IMG/VR virus record: IMGVR_UViG_2778261570_000004
Span: 1 to 28,792 of that record
DNA length: 28,792 bases
Reading direction: 5' to 3' (one strand)
From: a virus
Taxonomy: Duplodnaviria; Heunggongvirae; Uroviricota; Caudoviricetes
Position numbers and translations under genes: made by a program. Shown one piece after another: positions 1,978 to 28,189 of this stretch; position 1 is the first letter of the stretch; each line of letters starts with the position of its first letter. Below the pieces are notes generated by a model. It was not told the DNA's origin. It saw only the letters and a list, made by a program, of their open reading frames with translations, and searched no databases.

Positions 1978-1996
1978 TATGTTAGAAATCTAATTT
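1977..1996. promoter_or_regulatory. operator-like motif copy 2 (ATATGTTAGAAATCTAATTT)
   Basis: Same motif family, immediately after the stop of the 757..1977 ORF. Confidence 0.45.
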
Positions 1997-2132
1997 CATT
2001 AAAAGAACATATTGATTGTGAGAGTAACTTAACTTAGAATTTTCCTTGCTGGTGGAGCGTTGCCACATTTCGCTTGCTGGGCTTGATAGTCACTTATTGG
2101 TTGTTGTTCGCCCACCAGCAAATAACAAATTA

Positions 2133-2150
2133 AAGTGTTAGAAAATTACA
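2133..2150. promoter_or_regulatory. operator-like motif copy 3 (AAGTGTTAGAAAATTACA)
   Basis: Same motif core GTTAGAAAA. Confidence 0.4.
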
Positions 2151-2634
2151 TGCATACAGGGACTCGCTTTGGCACCGAGCAAGCCAAAGTTCAGCAGGTT
2201 TAGTGCGTAAAGTGGTTTCAGAGAGAGCACTTTACGGAGTAAACAACAAGACATGTTGAGCCACGGAAGGTCTTTTTAAGATGTTCATTGATGATGGTCC
2301 GGCAGAGAGTAACGGGACTCGCCGCATCGAATCATCATCAATGCACATCCTCAACATTAAGGAGGCATAGGGATTTTTTTGTGGCGATTACCTTTTGCCC
2401 TAAGTCTCCTTAATGTTGCGGTAATGCACCTATGCGGATGCGGCCTTGCATTGTGTCTTGAAAGAATGGGGTAAGGCCGGGGATATCCCCAGGGGGAGGC
2501 ACCCCCGCTGCAACGAACAGCCACAGACGGCAGTCGAGTGATGGAAACGTGCAAAGACTTTAAACCTCGTTACGGCTGGCGTGGCAAACGCGACAACCGA
2601 GACAGAGCGGTGACGGGCGGAGAGAGTGCCGCAT

Positions 2635-2756
2635 CAAGAAAGAAGCCGACTTGTGATCCCTTTCTGCGGGCATTTGAAAGTGAATCCAGCTCAGGCAGTC
2701 GGCTTCTTTCTTGTGTGAGATGTAGCGTATTTGCCCATCTTCGGGTGGGCTTTTTT
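2635..2756 (+). ncRNA. candidate structured small RNA: 17-bp perfect inverted repeat hairpin followed by intrinsic terminator
   Basis: CAAGAAAGAAGCCGACT (2635-2651) pairs perfectly with AGTCGGCTTCTTTCTTG (2697-2713); GCCCA-loop-TGGGC plus T6 at 2733-2756; no credible CDS. Confidence 0.35.
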
Positions 2757-2930
2757 AGGGTTTTCGTCATGGTTAGCGACTTTGCGGCGGTTTAGAACCC
2801 GACCATTAAAGTAAATGCAAACGATGATCTGATGATGGTAGCGGCCTAAGAAGCCTGACGCCACGGGGTATGAGTCGTCCCCCGTCAAAAAATCGACCGC
2901 AGAGTGTCCCCGTCTGTGTATTAGGGAACG

Positions 2931-3026
2931 GGGAGGCATAACAGGCAAGGGCGCTGGTGTGATTAACCAGATGAATGAGAAGGGTCAGGTCTTTCTGGTC
3001 AGCGCCCTTACCTGTTACGTCCCTCC
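2931..3026. repeat. long imperfect hairpin, module copy 1 (ACAGGCAAGGGCGCTG / CAGCGCCCTTACCTGTT)
   Basis: About 26-bp stem with one G-U position; shares ACAGG-AAGGG / CCCTTACC-GTTG arms with copies at 3373, 3583 and 4993. Confidence 0.45.
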
Positions 3027-3216
3027 CGCGTAACAGCCATTGATTAATGGCTTTCTGGGATAACATCCTACTACGGGTATATCCCGTCATGCTGAAGGCG
3101 CTAATCACGCTGGAAGCCAGGGTTGTGCATCCCCTGTTACCGAATTGCAGCCAGGGCGCGGTGCGCCGAAAAGCATACGGAGGTGGAAGCCCTCGCCGGA
3201 GACGTACCCGGCAAGT

Positions 3217-3292
3217 GATGGTGTAGCTCAGCGGTTAGAGCGGTTGACTGTTAATCAACGGGTCGATGGTTCAAATCCATCCACCATCGCCA
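3217..3292 (+). tRNA. tRNA-Asn (anticodon GTT)
   Basis: Manual cloverleaf: acceptor GATGGTG/CACCATC, D-arm GCTC..GAGC, anticodon loop CTGTTAA, T-arm GATGG-TTCAAAT-CCATC, encoded CCA. Confidence 0.85.
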
Positions 3293-3294
3293 AT

Positions 3295-3370
3295 GCCGGT
3301 TTAGCTCAGTTGGTAGAGCGCCTGCCTTGTAAGCAGGATGTCAGCGGTTCGAGTCCGTTAATCGGCACCA
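3295..3370 (+). tRNA. tRNA-Thr (anticodon TGT)
   Basis: Manual cloverleaf: acceptor GCCGGTT/AATCGGC (one G-U), anticodon stem CCTGC/GCAGG with loop CTTGTAA, T-loop TTCGAGT, encoded CCA. Confidence 0.85.
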
Positions 3371-3372
3371 GC

Positions 3373-3460
3373 ACAACAGGTAAGGGTATTTTGCGACGTC
3401 GGAGATCGCCGAGCTTGGCAGAGGGTTCGAATCCCTACGAAGTACCCTTACCGTTGTGAT
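3373..3460. repeat. hairpin module copy 2, containing a T-arm-like GGTTCGAATCC (tRNA-like remnant)
   Basis: Arms ACAACAGGTAAGGG / CCCTTACCGTTGTG; internal AGGGTTCGAATCCCT; does not fold as a canonical 76-nt tRNA. Confidence 0.4.
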
Positions 3461-3582
3461 GAATGCGCAGGCTGATGCGCGAAAGACATTGCAGCTATTG
3501 CGGAAAAGAGCTGTTCGGCGGGGCAATTAAACGCCCGTGAGAGTCTGAAATAACCGCAAGCCGGAGATCAGCACCGGTCATC

Positions 3583-3657
3583 ACAACACAACAGGTAAGG
3601 GCATTCTCCCTTATGGGGCTTGGCTTAAATGCATCGAGTGCTCTTACCGTTGTGATG
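3583..3657. repeat. hairpin module copy 3
   Basis: CATCACAACACAACAGGTAAGGG ... CTCTTACCGTTGTGATG. Confidence 0.4.
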
Positions 3658-4018
3658 AAGTGCAGCTCTTTGAAGCAACCAGAAGATAAGCATCTGGCTT
3701 CACAACATAAACCGCAGGAACGACCAATAAACGGTAGTCCGTATGGAGAACACCCCGTTGAGGAAGAGGCCTGGCCGGAACCGTAACCGGCACTATAACG
3801 TTGAGAACACTGGCGTAACGGGTTCATATCCCAATCTACAGGTCCACCAGGAATGCTCTTTCCGTTGCGGTGAATGCGGCTAAGCGCACGCGGAACAGTT
3901 AAAACAATCCTCCTTAATGGTTAAACATTCCGACGTTAATTGTTAACTGGTTAACGTCACCGGGAGGCACTCGGCACCGCAATCTAATAAATATGTCACT
4001 TTTATTGAGGGATAACCA

Positions 4019-4453
4019 ATGTTCGGTAAATTGTTCGGCAAGAAAGTCGCTTCTGCAAAAGTAGAGCTGAAAAAAGTTGAGAATCGCGATCTGATGGAGG
4101 CCATCATCGGTGGCTGTTTGTTGGTGTCTGCCGCTGATGGTGAAATCGAAAAAGAAGAAACAGCGAAACTTGATCAGCTTGTCCGCTCTAATCCGCGTCT
4201 TAGTCATTTTGGTAACGAAATTACTGCAACAATTACCCGCTTTACCGAGCAACTGGAAGCTGGCTTCCGTGTTGGTCGCATGAATATCCTTCGCGAAATT
4301 GAAGATATCAAAAACGATCCAAAAGAAGCGGAAGAAGTATTCGTTAACATGCTGACAATTGCAGAAGCGGACGGTGAAATCGAGCCAGCAGAACACAAAG
4401 TACTGGAAGAAGTAGGCCGTCGTTTAGGTCTTCGTGTGGAAGATTATCTGTAA
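4019..4453 (+). CDS. TerB-like protein (tellurite-resistance TerB family; resembles P1 TciA)
   Basis: Repeated ADGEIE...E motif (SAADGEIEKEE, AEADGEIEPAEH) typical of TerB; SD GAGGGA before ATG. Confidence 0.65.
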   Translation: MFGKLFGKKVASAKVELKKVENRDLMEAIIGGCLLVSAADGEIEKEETAKLDQLVRSNPRLSHFGNEITATITRFTEQLEAGFRVGRMNILREIEDIKNDPKEAEEVFVNMLTIAEADGEIEPAEHKVLEEVGRRLGLRVEDYL

Positions 4454-4617
4454 TGGCAAGCAAGGCACGTATCGCAATCGCCATTGGTTTTCTCTTGCTG
4501 TCCGTGCTGGTGGATTTCACCAGCACAATCCTGTCAGTTTTATCGGACGGGGCGTTGGTGGCAGTAGCTGTAACATTGGTATGGCCGATATTAAAAACAG
4601 CTTCTAAGGATCAGTGA
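4453..4617 (+). CDS. small hydrophobic peptide (54 aa), translationally coupled (TAATG)
   Basis: MASKARIAIAIGFLLLSVLVDF...; stop/start overlap with TerB-like gene; below track size cutoff. Confidence 0.45.
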   Translation: MASKARIAIAIGFLLLSVLVDFTSTILSVLSDGALVAVAVTLVWPILKTASKDQ

Positions 4618-4724
4618 TGGGCTTCTGGGATTTTGCTGACAAGCATCCAATTGTTCTCGTTGTCATTGCTGGCATAGTTGTAGGCGGTATTGCTGGCGTC
4701 ATAGAAGCACTCAGGAAACAGTAA
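4617..4724 (+). CDS. small hydrophobic peptide (35 aa), translationally coupled (TGATG)
   Basis: MGFWDFADKHPIVLVVIAGIVVGGIAGVIEALRKQ; stop 4 nt before the tRNA. Confidence 0.4.
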   Translation: MGFWDFADKHPIVLVVIAGIVVGGIAGVIEALRKQ

Positions 4725-4727
4725 TCC

Positions 4728-4803
4728 GGCCCTTTAGCTCAGTGGTTAGAGCTGGCGACTCATAATCGCACGGTCACCGGTTCAAGTCCGGTAGGGGCCA
4801 CCA
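4728..4803 (+). tRNA. tRNA with anticodon CAT, ileX-like (Ile2 if lysidine-modified, otherwise Met)
   Basis: Acceptor GGCCCTT/AGGGGCC, anticodon loop CTCATAA, T-arm CCGG-TTCAAGT-CCGG, encoded CCA; strongly resembles E. coli ileX as recalled. Confidence 0.85.
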
Positions 4804-4992
4804 TATTTGGTTGTAACACGGCGTCTGGCACATGCGTCGTTAGCGGTCTGGTGACGTTAAAAGGGGGGAACCTTGCCCCTAGCTCAGGCAACGAACCAGG
4901 TAGCCGGAATGTGCAAGCCACCGTTTGTTGTTTCTCGGGTAAAGGGATTCACCATCCTGGCGATTCGGTGTGACAGCCGGGAAGAGTACGGC

Positions 4993-5045
4993 GCACAACA
5001 GGAAAAGGCGTTTAATTAACGTGAGCGCCGTTTCCGTTGTGGTAA
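4993..5045. repeat. hairpin module copy 5 (ACAACAGGAAAAGGCG / CGCCGTTTCCGTTGTGG)
   Basis: Same arm family as 2931, 3373, 3583. Confidence 0.35.
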
Positions 5046-5262
5046 TTGCGGCTATGCGCTCGTGACGAAGCCATTTTCATTCACTACGTTCTGATAAGTG
5101 ACGTCGCCAGGAGTGGCTAACCTGGCAGGTGGAGGCACCACCGCCACAACTCCTTTCAATTCATCATATAGCCGCTCAGGCTGTAACCCTTAATTAATAC
5201 GAAGTTTCGACATCTCTATCGGTTTAACCGAGGGATGGTCGCGCGTGTAAAAAGGAGACGTT

Positions 5263-5838
5263 ATGTTAACGGCGAACGATAACGCGTATGCAGAAGCAGA
5301 TCTCATATTCAGTGACTTCATCGGTCAGCGGGAACGCTGGACACAAAAGCGAGAGGAACTTTATGCCTCGTTAGTTCGCAAAGGTGTCAACATTGAAACC
5401 GCTCAAAGCGGCGATATGACGGTAGTCAGTGTTGGATTACATGGTGTGAGCGTGTCCGCAGCCAATCATGAGCCATACGTAGCGTTATCCGAGTCGATGG
5501 CAAGGCTAATTAAGTTTCTGAAGCAAACAGAAGCCAATAATGTTTTCATCGCCAAAAAGAACATCAATTTTTCTGCCGCCATGTTCTGGATGATGAAGGG
5601 GCTGGATGCCCGCCGGGCATCATGGCCTAAAGGGAGCTATTTATCGATGTTCCGTGGCAGCATTGGCAGCAAAGAAAAGCTCTTCGAATTCTTGCCGGAA
5701 GAGGCATTCGATATTGTGGAAGGGTGCGATGTGATGGTTATGCCTCGCCTGGTAATGATGAATGGGGATTTACAGGCGCAGACAGACTGGTTCGCAACTG
5801 GCGTGGATATTATCGCAACTGACTGGGAGGCATTCTGA
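5263..5838 (+). CDS. hypothetical protein with C-terminal DUF2829-like domain (191 aa)
   Basis: SD AAGGAG; C-terminal AAMFWMMKGLDARRASWPKGSYL...QTDWFATGVDIIATDWEAF resembles the DUF2829 pattern. Confidence 0.6.
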   Translation: MLTANDNAYAEADLIFSDFIGQRERWTQKREELYASLVRKGVNIETAQSGDMTVVSVGLHGVSVSAANHEPYVALSESMARLIKFLKQTEANNVFIAKKNINFSAAMFWMMKGLDARRASWPKGSYLSMFRGSIGSKEKLFEFLPEEAFDIVEGCDVMVMPRLVMMNGDLQAQTDWFATGVDIIATDWEAF

Positions 5839-27877: not shown

Positions 27878-27982
27878 AATACTGACTGTTGCGCCATGGC
27901 ATTATCGTGGGGTATATTTCTACGGCACCTTAGAAAAACGGGTGCCGGGATTGGAACCCCGGATAATGTCAAAGGCGACACA

Positions 27983-28004
27983 GACGCCGAAAGCGTCTTT
28001 TTTT
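27983..28004 (+). terminator. rho-independent terminator (GACGC-cgaaa-GCGTC plus T7)
   Basis: Perfect 5-bp stem and run of seven T. Confidence 0.6.
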
Positions 28005-28189
28005 GTGTCATGCCATCGCACAGCCATACGTAGCGTTTAGCTCAGAGATCAATGGTAGTGCTGGCTGGGCTGCCGAAAGGCAGGCCGGTTCCCTTTGACG
28101 CCGGTAGTTCCAACCCAGTCAGTGCTACCGCCATTGAGATTGGAACCTCACGCGGTAGCTCCTTAACTTAGTCAAAGGAGGCTGCCAAT

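Follow-up and report, generated by a model that had tools for sequence, protein, structure and literature searches.

The long hairpins that alternate with tRNA genes in the DNA of a P1-like phage raise the question of what they are and why they stand where they do. The DNA is IMG/VR record IMGVR_UViG_2778261570_000004 (Caudoviricetes; positions 1 to 28,792, the whole of which is called the window here), and comparison of its sequence places it among the P1/D6-like phage-plasmids (Punavirus), with phage D6 and one P1 isolate as the nearest relatives of the stretch that carries the hairpins. An earlier note, made from the letters alone, had described a family of hairpin modules flanking three tRNA genes and had offered three readings of them: processing structures, tRNA-derived small RNAs, or remnants of decayed tRNA genes. 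The hairpins, termed H, are selected RNA structures, and this can be said with far more confidence than which nucleases act on them. They share their last bases with a second module, termed D, which appears to be a tRNA-shaped domain of the STnc100/PasD class of small RNAs. The reading favored here, with a probability of about 50%, is that the hairpins are RNA-level structured spacers and leaders between tRNA-shaped units of a long early transcript and that, by analogy with known systems, host nucleases would cut at them.

Structure and Conservation of the Long Hairpins

Every copy named in the earlier note is present on the + strand (H1, H2, H3, and H5, with H4 as its partial fifth), and a sixth copy, H0, lies outside the region covered by that note and had been overlooked (Table 1). 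The stem of H is built of 6 plus 14 pairs, 20 to 22 bp overall, and shows two recurrent nonhelical features, a bulged A after CACAAC and, in half of the copies, a U·U at one position. H2 contains 14 of 14 inner pairs together with CACAAC/GTTGTG and the bulged A. H1 is the longest hairpin, nearly perfect and with 27-nt arms; it stands 5' of tRNA-Asn, and no D domain follows it. RNA folding, which the earlier note had proposed as a check, gives z-scores of -5.25 to -6.38 for the five intact copies, with 0 of 200 shuffles folding as well, and H4 alone fails. The arm patterns as such are only weakly above chance, with 6 matches of the 5' arm compared to 1.87 expected (2 of 100 shuffles) and 5 matches of the 3' arm compared to 1.85 expected. 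A scan of the 28.8 kb on both strands for AAC...GTT hairpins with at least 13 of 14 pairs confines them to positions 2350 to 5041, and its only other match is the reverse-strand image of the near-perfect H1. The tRNA-flanking placement that had been described also holds: H1 lies ∼190 nt 5' of tRNA-Asn, H2 abuts tRNA-Thr, and H5 lies ∼190 nt 3' of tRNA(CAU).

The deviating copy H4 consists of a 5' half of the ACAACGTTGAGAACACTGG type joined, after ...CCCAATCTAC (position 3839), to a 3' half of the GTAACAGGTAAGAGC type. The join falls in a stretch common to both hairpin types, GGGKTCATATCCCAATCTAC, and the modules in between are deleted compared to D6, P1, and Ro157. By this comparison, H4 is the product of a recombination between two hairpins and not of decay. 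In other phages, a small conserved hairpin, GCTCCACGAAACGGAGC, is found immediately 5' of many H copies (loci L002, ∼2625 to 2650, and L003, ∼2860 to 2885, as well as L102, L105, and L116) and is often itself preceded by GGTGCRG..TGATCACC; it is missing here because of the H4 deletion.

Relatives of the modules were collected by blastn against phages and by scans for exact patterns, two of them covering viral contigs and one covering bacterial genomes; the counts of loci refer to the matches listed and are lower bounds. Among 41 distinct pairs of H arms, both partners vary at 10 of 20 base pairs, and the share of paired cells is 95.6%, values reached by 0 of 500 shuffles, and registers slid against each other are 35 to 61% paired. 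Since the arms had partly been selected for pairing, an independent control was run on 91 contexts anchored on block B of the unit described below alone. Here, 81% of the variable 3' arms find at least 12 of 14 pairs beside an upstream AAC, compared to 7.6% when the arms are swapped between loci. The covariance analysis suggested in the earlier note thus shows the H stems to covary, and their pairing to be conserved, across ∼100 contexts.

The structures are also strand specific. On the tRNA-sense strand, the H stems contain 112 G·U compared to 8 A·C. A tRNA gene lies within 500 nt at 21 of 119 loci and is on the same strand in all 21, and the nearest open reading frames (ORFs) are co-oriented with the unit in 72 of 83 contexts downstream and 71 of 89 upstream.

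The tRNA-Shaped D Domain and the Composite Unit

The small downstream hairpin that the earlier note assigned to each module is part of D, which begins within the last bases of H. It is present after H2 (3465 to 3480), H4 (∼3876 to 3887), and H5 (∼5048 to 5059), is lacking after H1, and has a different counterpart after H3. The window accordingly contains the units H0-D0, H2-D2, H3-D3, H4-D4, and H5-D5, with H1 alone. The composite unit is comprised of three conserved blocks (A, B, and C) and two variable inserts (V1 and V2). Block A, CACAAC(A)GGTAAGAGCATTG, is followed by V1, of 40 to 130 nt; block B, CAGTGCTCTTTCC-GTTGTGG-TGAAT-GCGCAGGCTGATGCGC, is followed by V2, of 40 to 150 nt; and block C reads GCCGGAGATCAGCACCGGC-CACCACA. 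The stem of H is formed by block A and the first part of block B, and UGUGGUG of block B pairs with CACCACA of block C.

D folds into a 7-bp acceptor-type stem, followed after 3 unpaired nt by a D-type hairpin. A T-type hairpin of 5 bp directly adjoins the 3' strand of the acceptor-type stem, which is also the arrangement in tRNA. The acceptor-type stem is thus stacked on the T-type hairpin, and the contact of the D and T loops has its counterpart in a kiss of 5 to 6 bp between both hairpin loops, GCUGAU with AUCAGC. The variable insert occupies the place of the anticodon arm. In D2, the acceptor-like TGTGATG (3455 to 3461) pairs with CATCACA (3579 to 3585), the T-like hairpin spans positions 3560 to 3578, and the kiss connects GCTGAT (3471 to 3476) with ATCAGC (3567 to 3572). 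An alignment of 32 distinct scaffolds shows both partners varying at 11 of 24 pairs, compared to 2.5 in shuffles, and 0 of 500 shuffles reach this value. Three of the 11 compensated pairs belong to the kiss, with GUCGA opposite UCGAC in L192 and ACUGAU opposite AUCAGU in phage MK54; the kiss and the D-type stem played no part in selecting the sequences.

One subfamily of D shows a canonical D-arm, GCUC-AAUGGC-GAGC, and a canonical T-arm, GCCGG-UUCGAUU-CCGGC, in addition to an arm of 5 bp with a 7-nt loop and an insertion of ∼50 nt after the D-arm. With a threshold of 90% and introns allowed, ARAGORN calls D with matching ends in two of three of these cases. The anticodon-like loop contains neither U33 nor R37, and no Rfam family matches the unit of this subfamily in L130. 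An encoded CCA end (ACCA after the acceptor-like stem) is found in only 6 of 84 D copies and was rejected as a general trait of D. In the module region, the tRNA models (RF00005 and ARAGORN) call just the three true tRNAs; relaxed ARAGORN scoring of this DNA was discarded as giving noise on both strands. A covariance model of the trimmed D scaffold (R1) cannot bridge the variable insert; it splits D2 in two, and the minimal D3 is the only copy that it recovers in full.

The relationship to STnc100 (RF02076) is seen most clearly in D4, which reaches 42.0 bits, below the gathering score of 47, with an E value of 4.3e-7 over model positions 31 to 147. The D4 alignment covers the core fold of the family, that is, the 7-bp closing stem, GGUGAAU, the first hairpin, and the terminal CCGGG-AGGCA-CCCGG hairpin by the closing stem. 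The 3' part of the model (148 to 206) is unmatched, as the D4 match stops at position 147 and runs into the ribosome-binding site of tciA. The D4-homologous sites of D6, Ro157, and P1 score 39.6, 38.0, and 33.4 bits, respectively, and the copy in Rac scores 43.8 bits. D0, D2, D3, and D5, as well as all H copies, have no Rfam match at an E value of ≤10. By direct reading, however, D0 and D5 show core elements of STnc100. In D0, the 5' strand GTTGCGGT pairs with GCTGCAAC, and the terminal hairpin is GGGGG-AGGCA-CCCCC (2492 to 2506); in D5, GTTGTGGT pairs with GCCACAAC (5143 to 5150), and the terminal hairpin is GGTGG-AGGCA-CCACC (5128 to 5142). The same H0-D0 copy is carried by D6 (L001, ∼1153 to 1300).

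STnc100 and PasD are prophage small RNAs without an established function (PMC8550237; bioRxiv 10.64898/2026.05.13.724894; PMC12370729). PasD of enteropathogenic Escherichia coli is a reported relative of STnc100, depends on Hfq, and is seen on Northern blots (PMC8550237; bioRxiv 10.64898/2026.05.13.724894). Both resemble D in the core architecture, in their contexts in early or late operons of prophages, and in the association with genes of the terB/tciA type (bioRxiv 10.64898/2026.05.13.724894). In contrast to STnc100, the copies described here come without the 3' terminator part and score below the threshold. The published descriptions of STnc100 and PasD that were reached do not include an upstream H, a tRNA-like reading, or a loop-loop kiss.

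D can also be compared to the tRNA mimics, such as tmRNA, YrlA, and engineered tRNA scaffolds. In these, as in D, an acceptor-like stem is stacked on a T-arm, accompanied by a counterpart of the D-arm and by an elbow contact. Unlike in these, the elbow contact is replaced in most D copies by a Watson-Crick kiss of 5 to 6 bp, and CCA is rarely encoded. ARAGORN makes no tmRNA call, the Rfam tmRNA matches are noise, and position 3-70 of the D acceptor is U-A and not G3·U70. YrlA (RF02553) gives a sole match of 25.6 bits, compared to a gathering score of 69, over tRNA-Asn/Thr, and its topology differs in that H stands beside D instead of enclosing it. The engineered tRNA scaffolds, which reportedly go back to Ponchon and Dardel in 2007, carry a large foreign insert in the place of the anticodon arm, which is exactly the design of D.

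Junctions of the Hairpins with tRNAs and D Domains

The ends of H fit those of its neighbors to the nucleotide. Where a tRNA stands upstream, H starts 1 nt past its CCA in five distinct contexts, including the P1-type tRNA-Thr and the tRNA-Ser of D6, and its last 3 nt are the first 3 nt of tRNA-Arg(UCU) in three distinct contexts. The overlap with D amounts to 4 nt. At one shared position, eight units of at least three lineages (P1-type, D6, and Marinobacterium) have a C and not a U, and here the partner within H is a G in seven of the eight and the partner within D is a G in all eight; among 118 units with a U, nearly all have A or G as its partners. The shared nucleotide is thus constrained from both sides, and selection keeps two helices that cannot form at the same time, which suggests an ordered folding or a rearrangement coupled to processing.

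Distribution and Modular Shuffling

Pieces of positions 3371 to 3990 match at least 235 phage records by blastn, from phages of Escherichia, Klebsiella, Salmonella, Shigella, Citrobacter, and Cronobacter. With H2 and D2 as the query (3371 to 3600), matches are found in 1,060 of 5,426 complete E. coli genomes, with 719 chromosomal places. Most of these matches consist of D2, from its GTTGTG to its CACAAC, with 95 to 98% identity, and there is no annotation beneath any among the matches listed. The D2-like element is also present in unrelated phages. Exact copies of the 26-nt block B are found in many Enterobacterales and in Aeromonas and Marinobacterium. Those in a few unlikely metagenome-assembled genomes may stem from contamination. 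Block B, a full H-D unit, and neighboring tRNA genes were further observed in assemblies labeled Geobacteraceae, Acidobacteriota, Noviherbaspirillum, and Martelella (L234, L237, L244, and L233), which indicates either contamination with enterobacterial phages or a far wider host range.

The contexts of the unit vary. In CPS-53-like prophages and an Stx2a phage, it lies between the repressor gene and yfdP, and in Klebsiella siphophages and an Stx podophage, it is located in front of tRNA genes. Rac shows the order H, DicF-like element, STnc100-like D, and kilR; in Rac-SA53, the DicF-like element between H and the STnc100-like domain (L223, 1124 to 1178) reaches 41.1 bits compared to a gathering score of 48. 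On the basis of these comparisons, the H-D unit is widespread in phages and prophages of enteric bacteria and was unannotated in the matches inspected. V1 and V2 reassort independently from phage to phage, and P1 relatives differ by whole modules. The conserved blocks would therefore also act as joints for homologous recombination, by which the variable inserts are shuffled.

Proposed Processing Mechanism

The H modules probably direct cleavage by nucleases in addition to serving as recombination joints, a view that draws on analogy with known transcripts. In the proposed mechanism, the transcript, which is presumed to run through the modules in this phage, would fold into a string of stem-closed beads, with tRNAs and D domains parted by long hairpins. 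Each hairpin would begin 1 nt past the CCA of the preceding tRNA and have its last 3 to 4 nt in common with the next acceptor stem. Host nucleases would then cut at H. The candidates are RNase III for the long stem, RNase P for the acceptor-like 5' end, and RNase E. RNase III is considered because H offers about two turns of double-stranded RNA (dsRNA) with an irregularity, the classical form of its substrates; the predicted fold comprises ∼20 bp or more of largely continuous dsRNA. RNase P is considered because the acceptor-type stem overlaps the hairpin base at the expected cut site. A hairpin placed 1 nt past the CCA would block exonucleolytic trimming unless the hairpin is cut. Cutting would free mature tRNAs and stable tRNA-shaped small RNAs and would also part them from the downstream mRNAs (tciABC and ban or its D6-type replacement).

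Of the readings offered in the earlier note, processing structures is thus the one preferred here, by analogy and as a prediction. The second, tRNA-derived small RNAs, suits the neighboring D, in which the small hairpin is the D-arm analogue and one subfamily has canonical arms, and T-arm-like motifs are found in some H copies, but it does not describe H itself.

Hairpins comparable to H are known from the early RNase III sites of T7, such as R1.1, from the stems of rRNA operons, and from the DicF precursor of the dicB operon. These share with H the length of about two turns with an irregularity and the repeated position between the units of a polycistronic phage or prophage transcript. DicF is a precedent from an operon of this type, and both Rac and P1 have a DicF-like element next to the modules; Faubladier et al. 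are said to have found in 1990 that DicF is excised from the prophage operon transcript by RNase III and RNase E. In contrast to the known RNase III hairpins, the tops of H carry variable inserts of 40 to 130 nt, the base is common with an acceptor stem of the tRNA type, and cleavage is a prediction. A literature search for mapped RNase III sites near the Rac copy and kilR gave nothing usable. For P1 itself, the C4 RNA is reportedly matured by RNase P, according to Hartmann et al. in 1995.

Two further systems resemble the modules as RNAs made together with tRNAs. The tRNA cluster of phage T4 contains structured RNAs that are not tRNAs (species 1 or RNA C, and species 2 or RNA D), which are cotranscribed with the tRNAs and matured by host enzymes and whose function is still unknown. 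Species 1 RNA was reportedly a substrate of RNase III in vitro in the work of Paddock et al. in 1976. The likeness is one of description only: T4 is virulent and unrelated, and its RNAs are not known to form a mosaic family that is exchanged widely. The second system is 3'ETS-leuZ, which Lalaouna et al. are said to have described in 2015 as a small-RNA sponge from the spacer of a tRNA operon. As proposed for the modules, a functional RNA is freed from the spacer of a tRNA precursor by the tRNA-processing machinery. However, 3'ETS-leuZ is a short, unstructured, host-encoded spacer released by RNase E, without a hairpin or a tRNA-like architecture.

Several points weigh against this mechanism. 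The assignment of nucleases follows from geometry and analogy, and a stable hairpin whose end falls on position -1 of a tRNA makes a less than ideal leader for RNase P. Just ∼18% of the units adjoin a tRNA, and many begin a few nucleotides past an intrinsic terminator, so some of them may be independent small-RNA genes or depend on antitermination. A terminator-like site is present within 220 nt of 38% of the D domains, compared to 16% of control windows, and with only 38% having such a site, the D class is heterogeneous. The alignments consist of trimmed arms that were partly selected for pairing, which inflates the percentage of paired cells for the inner stem of H and for the acceptor and T-like stems of D. 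Finally, hairpins of single-stranded DNA also tolerate G·T, and the strand asymmetry is no formal exclusion of a role at the level of DNA.

Alternative Explanations

The H-D units can, tentatively, be seen as an unrecognized class of phage RNA, in which the bodies of tRNAs have the anticodon arm replaced by interchangeable payloads of 40 to 150 nt and are preceded by a hairpin leader that shares acceptor nucleotides. Such a natural tRNA scaffold might use the tRNA maturation of the host to make and stabilize small RNAs or tRNA decoys early in infection, with STnc100/PasD as its best-known branch.

In another reading, H and D, possibly with segment X (Table 1), would form a cis-acting leader that keeps RNA polymerase elongating across a long untranslated operon, either as a processive antiterminator of the put or nut type or passively, by leaving Rho no unstructured site for loading. 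Units stand at the start of repressor-controlled early operons, as in the ban leader of P1 and upstream of kilR in Rac, and the CPS-53-like units between the repressor gene and yfdP have two terminator-like hairpins downstream. The terminator-like site at 2733 to 2756 lies within the leader, 5' of H1 and the tRNAs, and many units start right after a terminator and are co-oriented with the downstream genes. An elongation leader is improbable nonetheless, as it gives no role to the exact fit with tRNA ends or to the tRNA-like fold of D, does not lead one to expect several tandem copies per leader, and has to accommodate units in the tRNA operons of T1-like Klebsiella phages. The boxA-like match in the 3' arm is unconserved and sequestered in the stem. 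A nut-like boxA/boxB reading of '...GCTCTTTCC-GTTGTG-...hairpin' was tried and rejected, since the boxA-like part varies between copies and is buried in the stem.

D by itself would suit a function in trans, with the modules as tRNA mimics or Hfq-dependent small RNAs, the inserts as payloads (such as seeds, sponges, or decoys of enzymes that bind tRNAs or of defense nucleases that cleave them), and H merely as a leader. The scaffold is tRNA shaped and fixed, its inserts are hypervariable, and the 26-nt 5' block is identical across bacterial orders. The STnc100 and PasD relatives are abundant, Hfq dependent, and rich in RIL-seq partners (PMC8550237); some D copies follow directly on a promoter-like site without an H (L064/L106 type), and the terminator-like sites downstream in 38% fit as well. 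As an account of the modules, a trans-acting role is doubtful in that it explains D and leaves out the hairpins. No D copy in the window has a terminator of its own, D4 runs into the ribosome-binding site of tciA, and the CCA end is encoded in so few copies.

It is very unlikely that the hairpins act as DNA, either as attC-like folded single-strand recombination sites or as miniature inverted-repeat elements that mobilize cassettes of tRNAs and small RNAs. Like the attC sites of integrons, H conserves structure over sequence: AAC...GTT at its foot is invariant, the stem covaries and often contains a mismatch, one base is extrahelical, and the center is variable. Whole modules are present or absent in the manner of cassettes among P1 relatives, and D2 moves as a unit bounded by GTTGTG...CACAAC. 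The flanking hexamers, however, miss the R-box consensus of attC, RYYYAAC/GTTRRRY: AAC/GTT is invariant, but the flanks CAC/GTG show A in place of Y and T in place of R, and attC was rejected on these grounds. The miniature inverted-repeat element was rejected as well, as the arms differ between copies in a compensatory manner, unlike the sequence-conserved repeats bound by transposases, and the ends show no duplications. Single units are found in phages of widely different kinds, ordinary homologous recombination accounts for the rearrangements that were observed, and the orientation rule with tRNAs and genes and the nucleotide-exact acceptor overlap point to RNA.

The third reading of the earlier note, by which the hairpins would be functionless leftovers of decayed tRNA genes, is hardly credible, and the covariation has already refuted it for the most part: although the hairpins sit in tRNA clusters in which relatives carry extra tRNAs (Ser in D6 and Tyr in Ro157), and T-arm-like motifs occur in H2 (AGGGTTCGAATCCCT, 3422 to 3436), in H4 (GGGTTCATATCCC), and in several other phages (GCGGTTCGATTCCGC), the stems have 20 to 22 bp and not 7, with compensatory changes and a conserved bulge in ∼100 contexts across many phage groups and several bacterial orders, the tRNA models match no hairpin at any threshold, noise apart, and the sole degenerate copy, H4, arose by recombination.

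Genomic Setting of the Modules

The modules preferred here as RNA-level spacers and leaders lie downstream of a pmgS-like gene (757 to 1977), and positions 1978 to 4018 contain no credible ORF. According to the P1 annotation, the corresponding region is the leader of the ban operon, 3' of the C1-repressed Pban promoter(s), with the order 'dicF-like region', tRNA-Asn, tRNA-Thr, tciABC, tRNA-Ile2(CAU), and ban. The ban operon transcript of P1 is long, early, mostly untranslated, and controlled by the C1 repressor. The counterpart of the 'dicF-like region' is located at ∼2660 to 2761, and the terminator-like site mentioned above consists of a strong hairpin with a T-run; the Rfam DicF model (RF00039) finds no match in 2550 to 5300 at an E value of ≤10.

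TABLE 1. Hairpins, D domains, tRNA genes, and segment X in the window
Feature	Position	Strand	Fold z	Description
H0	2350-2420	+	-5.25	Long hairpin, CTCAACATTAAGGAGGCATAGGG ... CCCTAAGTCTCCTTAATGTTGCG
D0	2415-2514	+		STnc100-type, tRNA-shaped; by architecture only, from direct reading; no Rfam match
H1	Core 2937-3019, arms to 2930-3026	+	-5.27	Long hairpin
tRNA-Asn(GUU)	3217-3292	+		ARAGORN, Rfam
tRNA-Thr(UGU)	3295-3370	+		ARAGORN, Rfam
H2	3372-3458	+	-6.14	Long hairpin; starts 2 nt past the CCA of tRNA-Thr
D2	3453-3587	+		tRNA-shaped domain; folds as a four-way junction
H3	3587-3654	+	-5.75	Long hairpin
D3	3649-3708	+		Minimal D, scaffold only; covariance model R1, 28.0 bits, E = 2.4e-5
H4	3793-3869	+	+0.82	Recombinant, nonfolding hybrid
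D4	3864-3981	+		STnc100-like; leader of tciA
tRNA(CAU)	4728-4803	+		ARAGORN, Rfam; ileX-like tRNA-Ile2 in the P1 annotation
Segment X	4808-4990	+		Conserved, noncoding; between tRNA(CAU) and H5
H5	4994-5041	+	-6.38	Short hairpin
D5	5036-5150	+		STnc100-type; by architecture only, from direct reading

Segment X, possibly a third type of module, is ∼80% identical to unannotated DNA of Stx and other phages (TL-2011b and Stx2a_WGPS2), and in Stx phages and prophages it again stands immediately 5' of an H hairpin. At 3195 to 3216, 4 nt 5' of tRNA-Asn, a block-C-like hairpin, GCCGG-AGACGTAC-CCGGC, may be the 3' end of an additional domain located past H1 and ahead of the tRNAs. In close relatives, the array includes further tRNAs, namely, a Ser(UGA) tRNA between two H-D units in D6 (L001, 2637 to 2723) and a Tyr(GUA) tRNA between Asn and Thr in Ro157 (L003, 2075 to 2161). 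Compared across these relatives, the array seems to gain and lose tRNAs as modules.

The P1 reference assigns the genes plp ('putative lipoprotein') and upl to the minus strand (NC_005856, 2118 to 2687); their counterpart here, 3344 to 3839, runs across tRNA-Thr and the H and D modules. The protein-coding reading was rejected: the plp frame is split here and in another P1 isolate and contains a stop in Ro157, the plp ORF overlaps tRNA-Thr, and upl is absent here and in D6. Both look like spurious ORF calls. In the immunity-I region of the window, Rfam matches above threshold are found for isrK (27925 to 28003, 62.7 bits) and the P1 C4 antisense RNA (28048 to 28135, 77.1 bits). This region lies ∼23 kb from the tRNA region; on the P1 map, the distance is presumably only a few kilobases.

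Significance of the H-D Units

STnc100 and PasD are already known, and the literature on P1 ban-leader RNAs and on tRNA-like phage RNAs that was searched does not describe the modules, although they may be among the ∼10,000 unnamed viral RNA candidates of one catalog (PMC10690425). Within the reachable literature, no description covers the hairpin module, the H-D architecture and the precision with which it fits the ends of tRNAs, or the tRNA-type fold and its loop-loop kiss.

About 2 kb of the ban operon leader of P1, for which the reference annotation lists two doubtful proteins (Plp and Upl), is a string of conserved RNA modules, and one variant of the unit is present without annotation in approximately one-fifth of the complete E. 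coli genomes. The unit is a natural parallel to the tRNA scaffolds that have been engineered for RNA expression. For STnc100 and PasD, it provides a structural frame, a tRNA-shaped scaffold with variable inserts, together with a testable route of biogenesis, and it suggests how phages might organize and mature their tRNA arrays.

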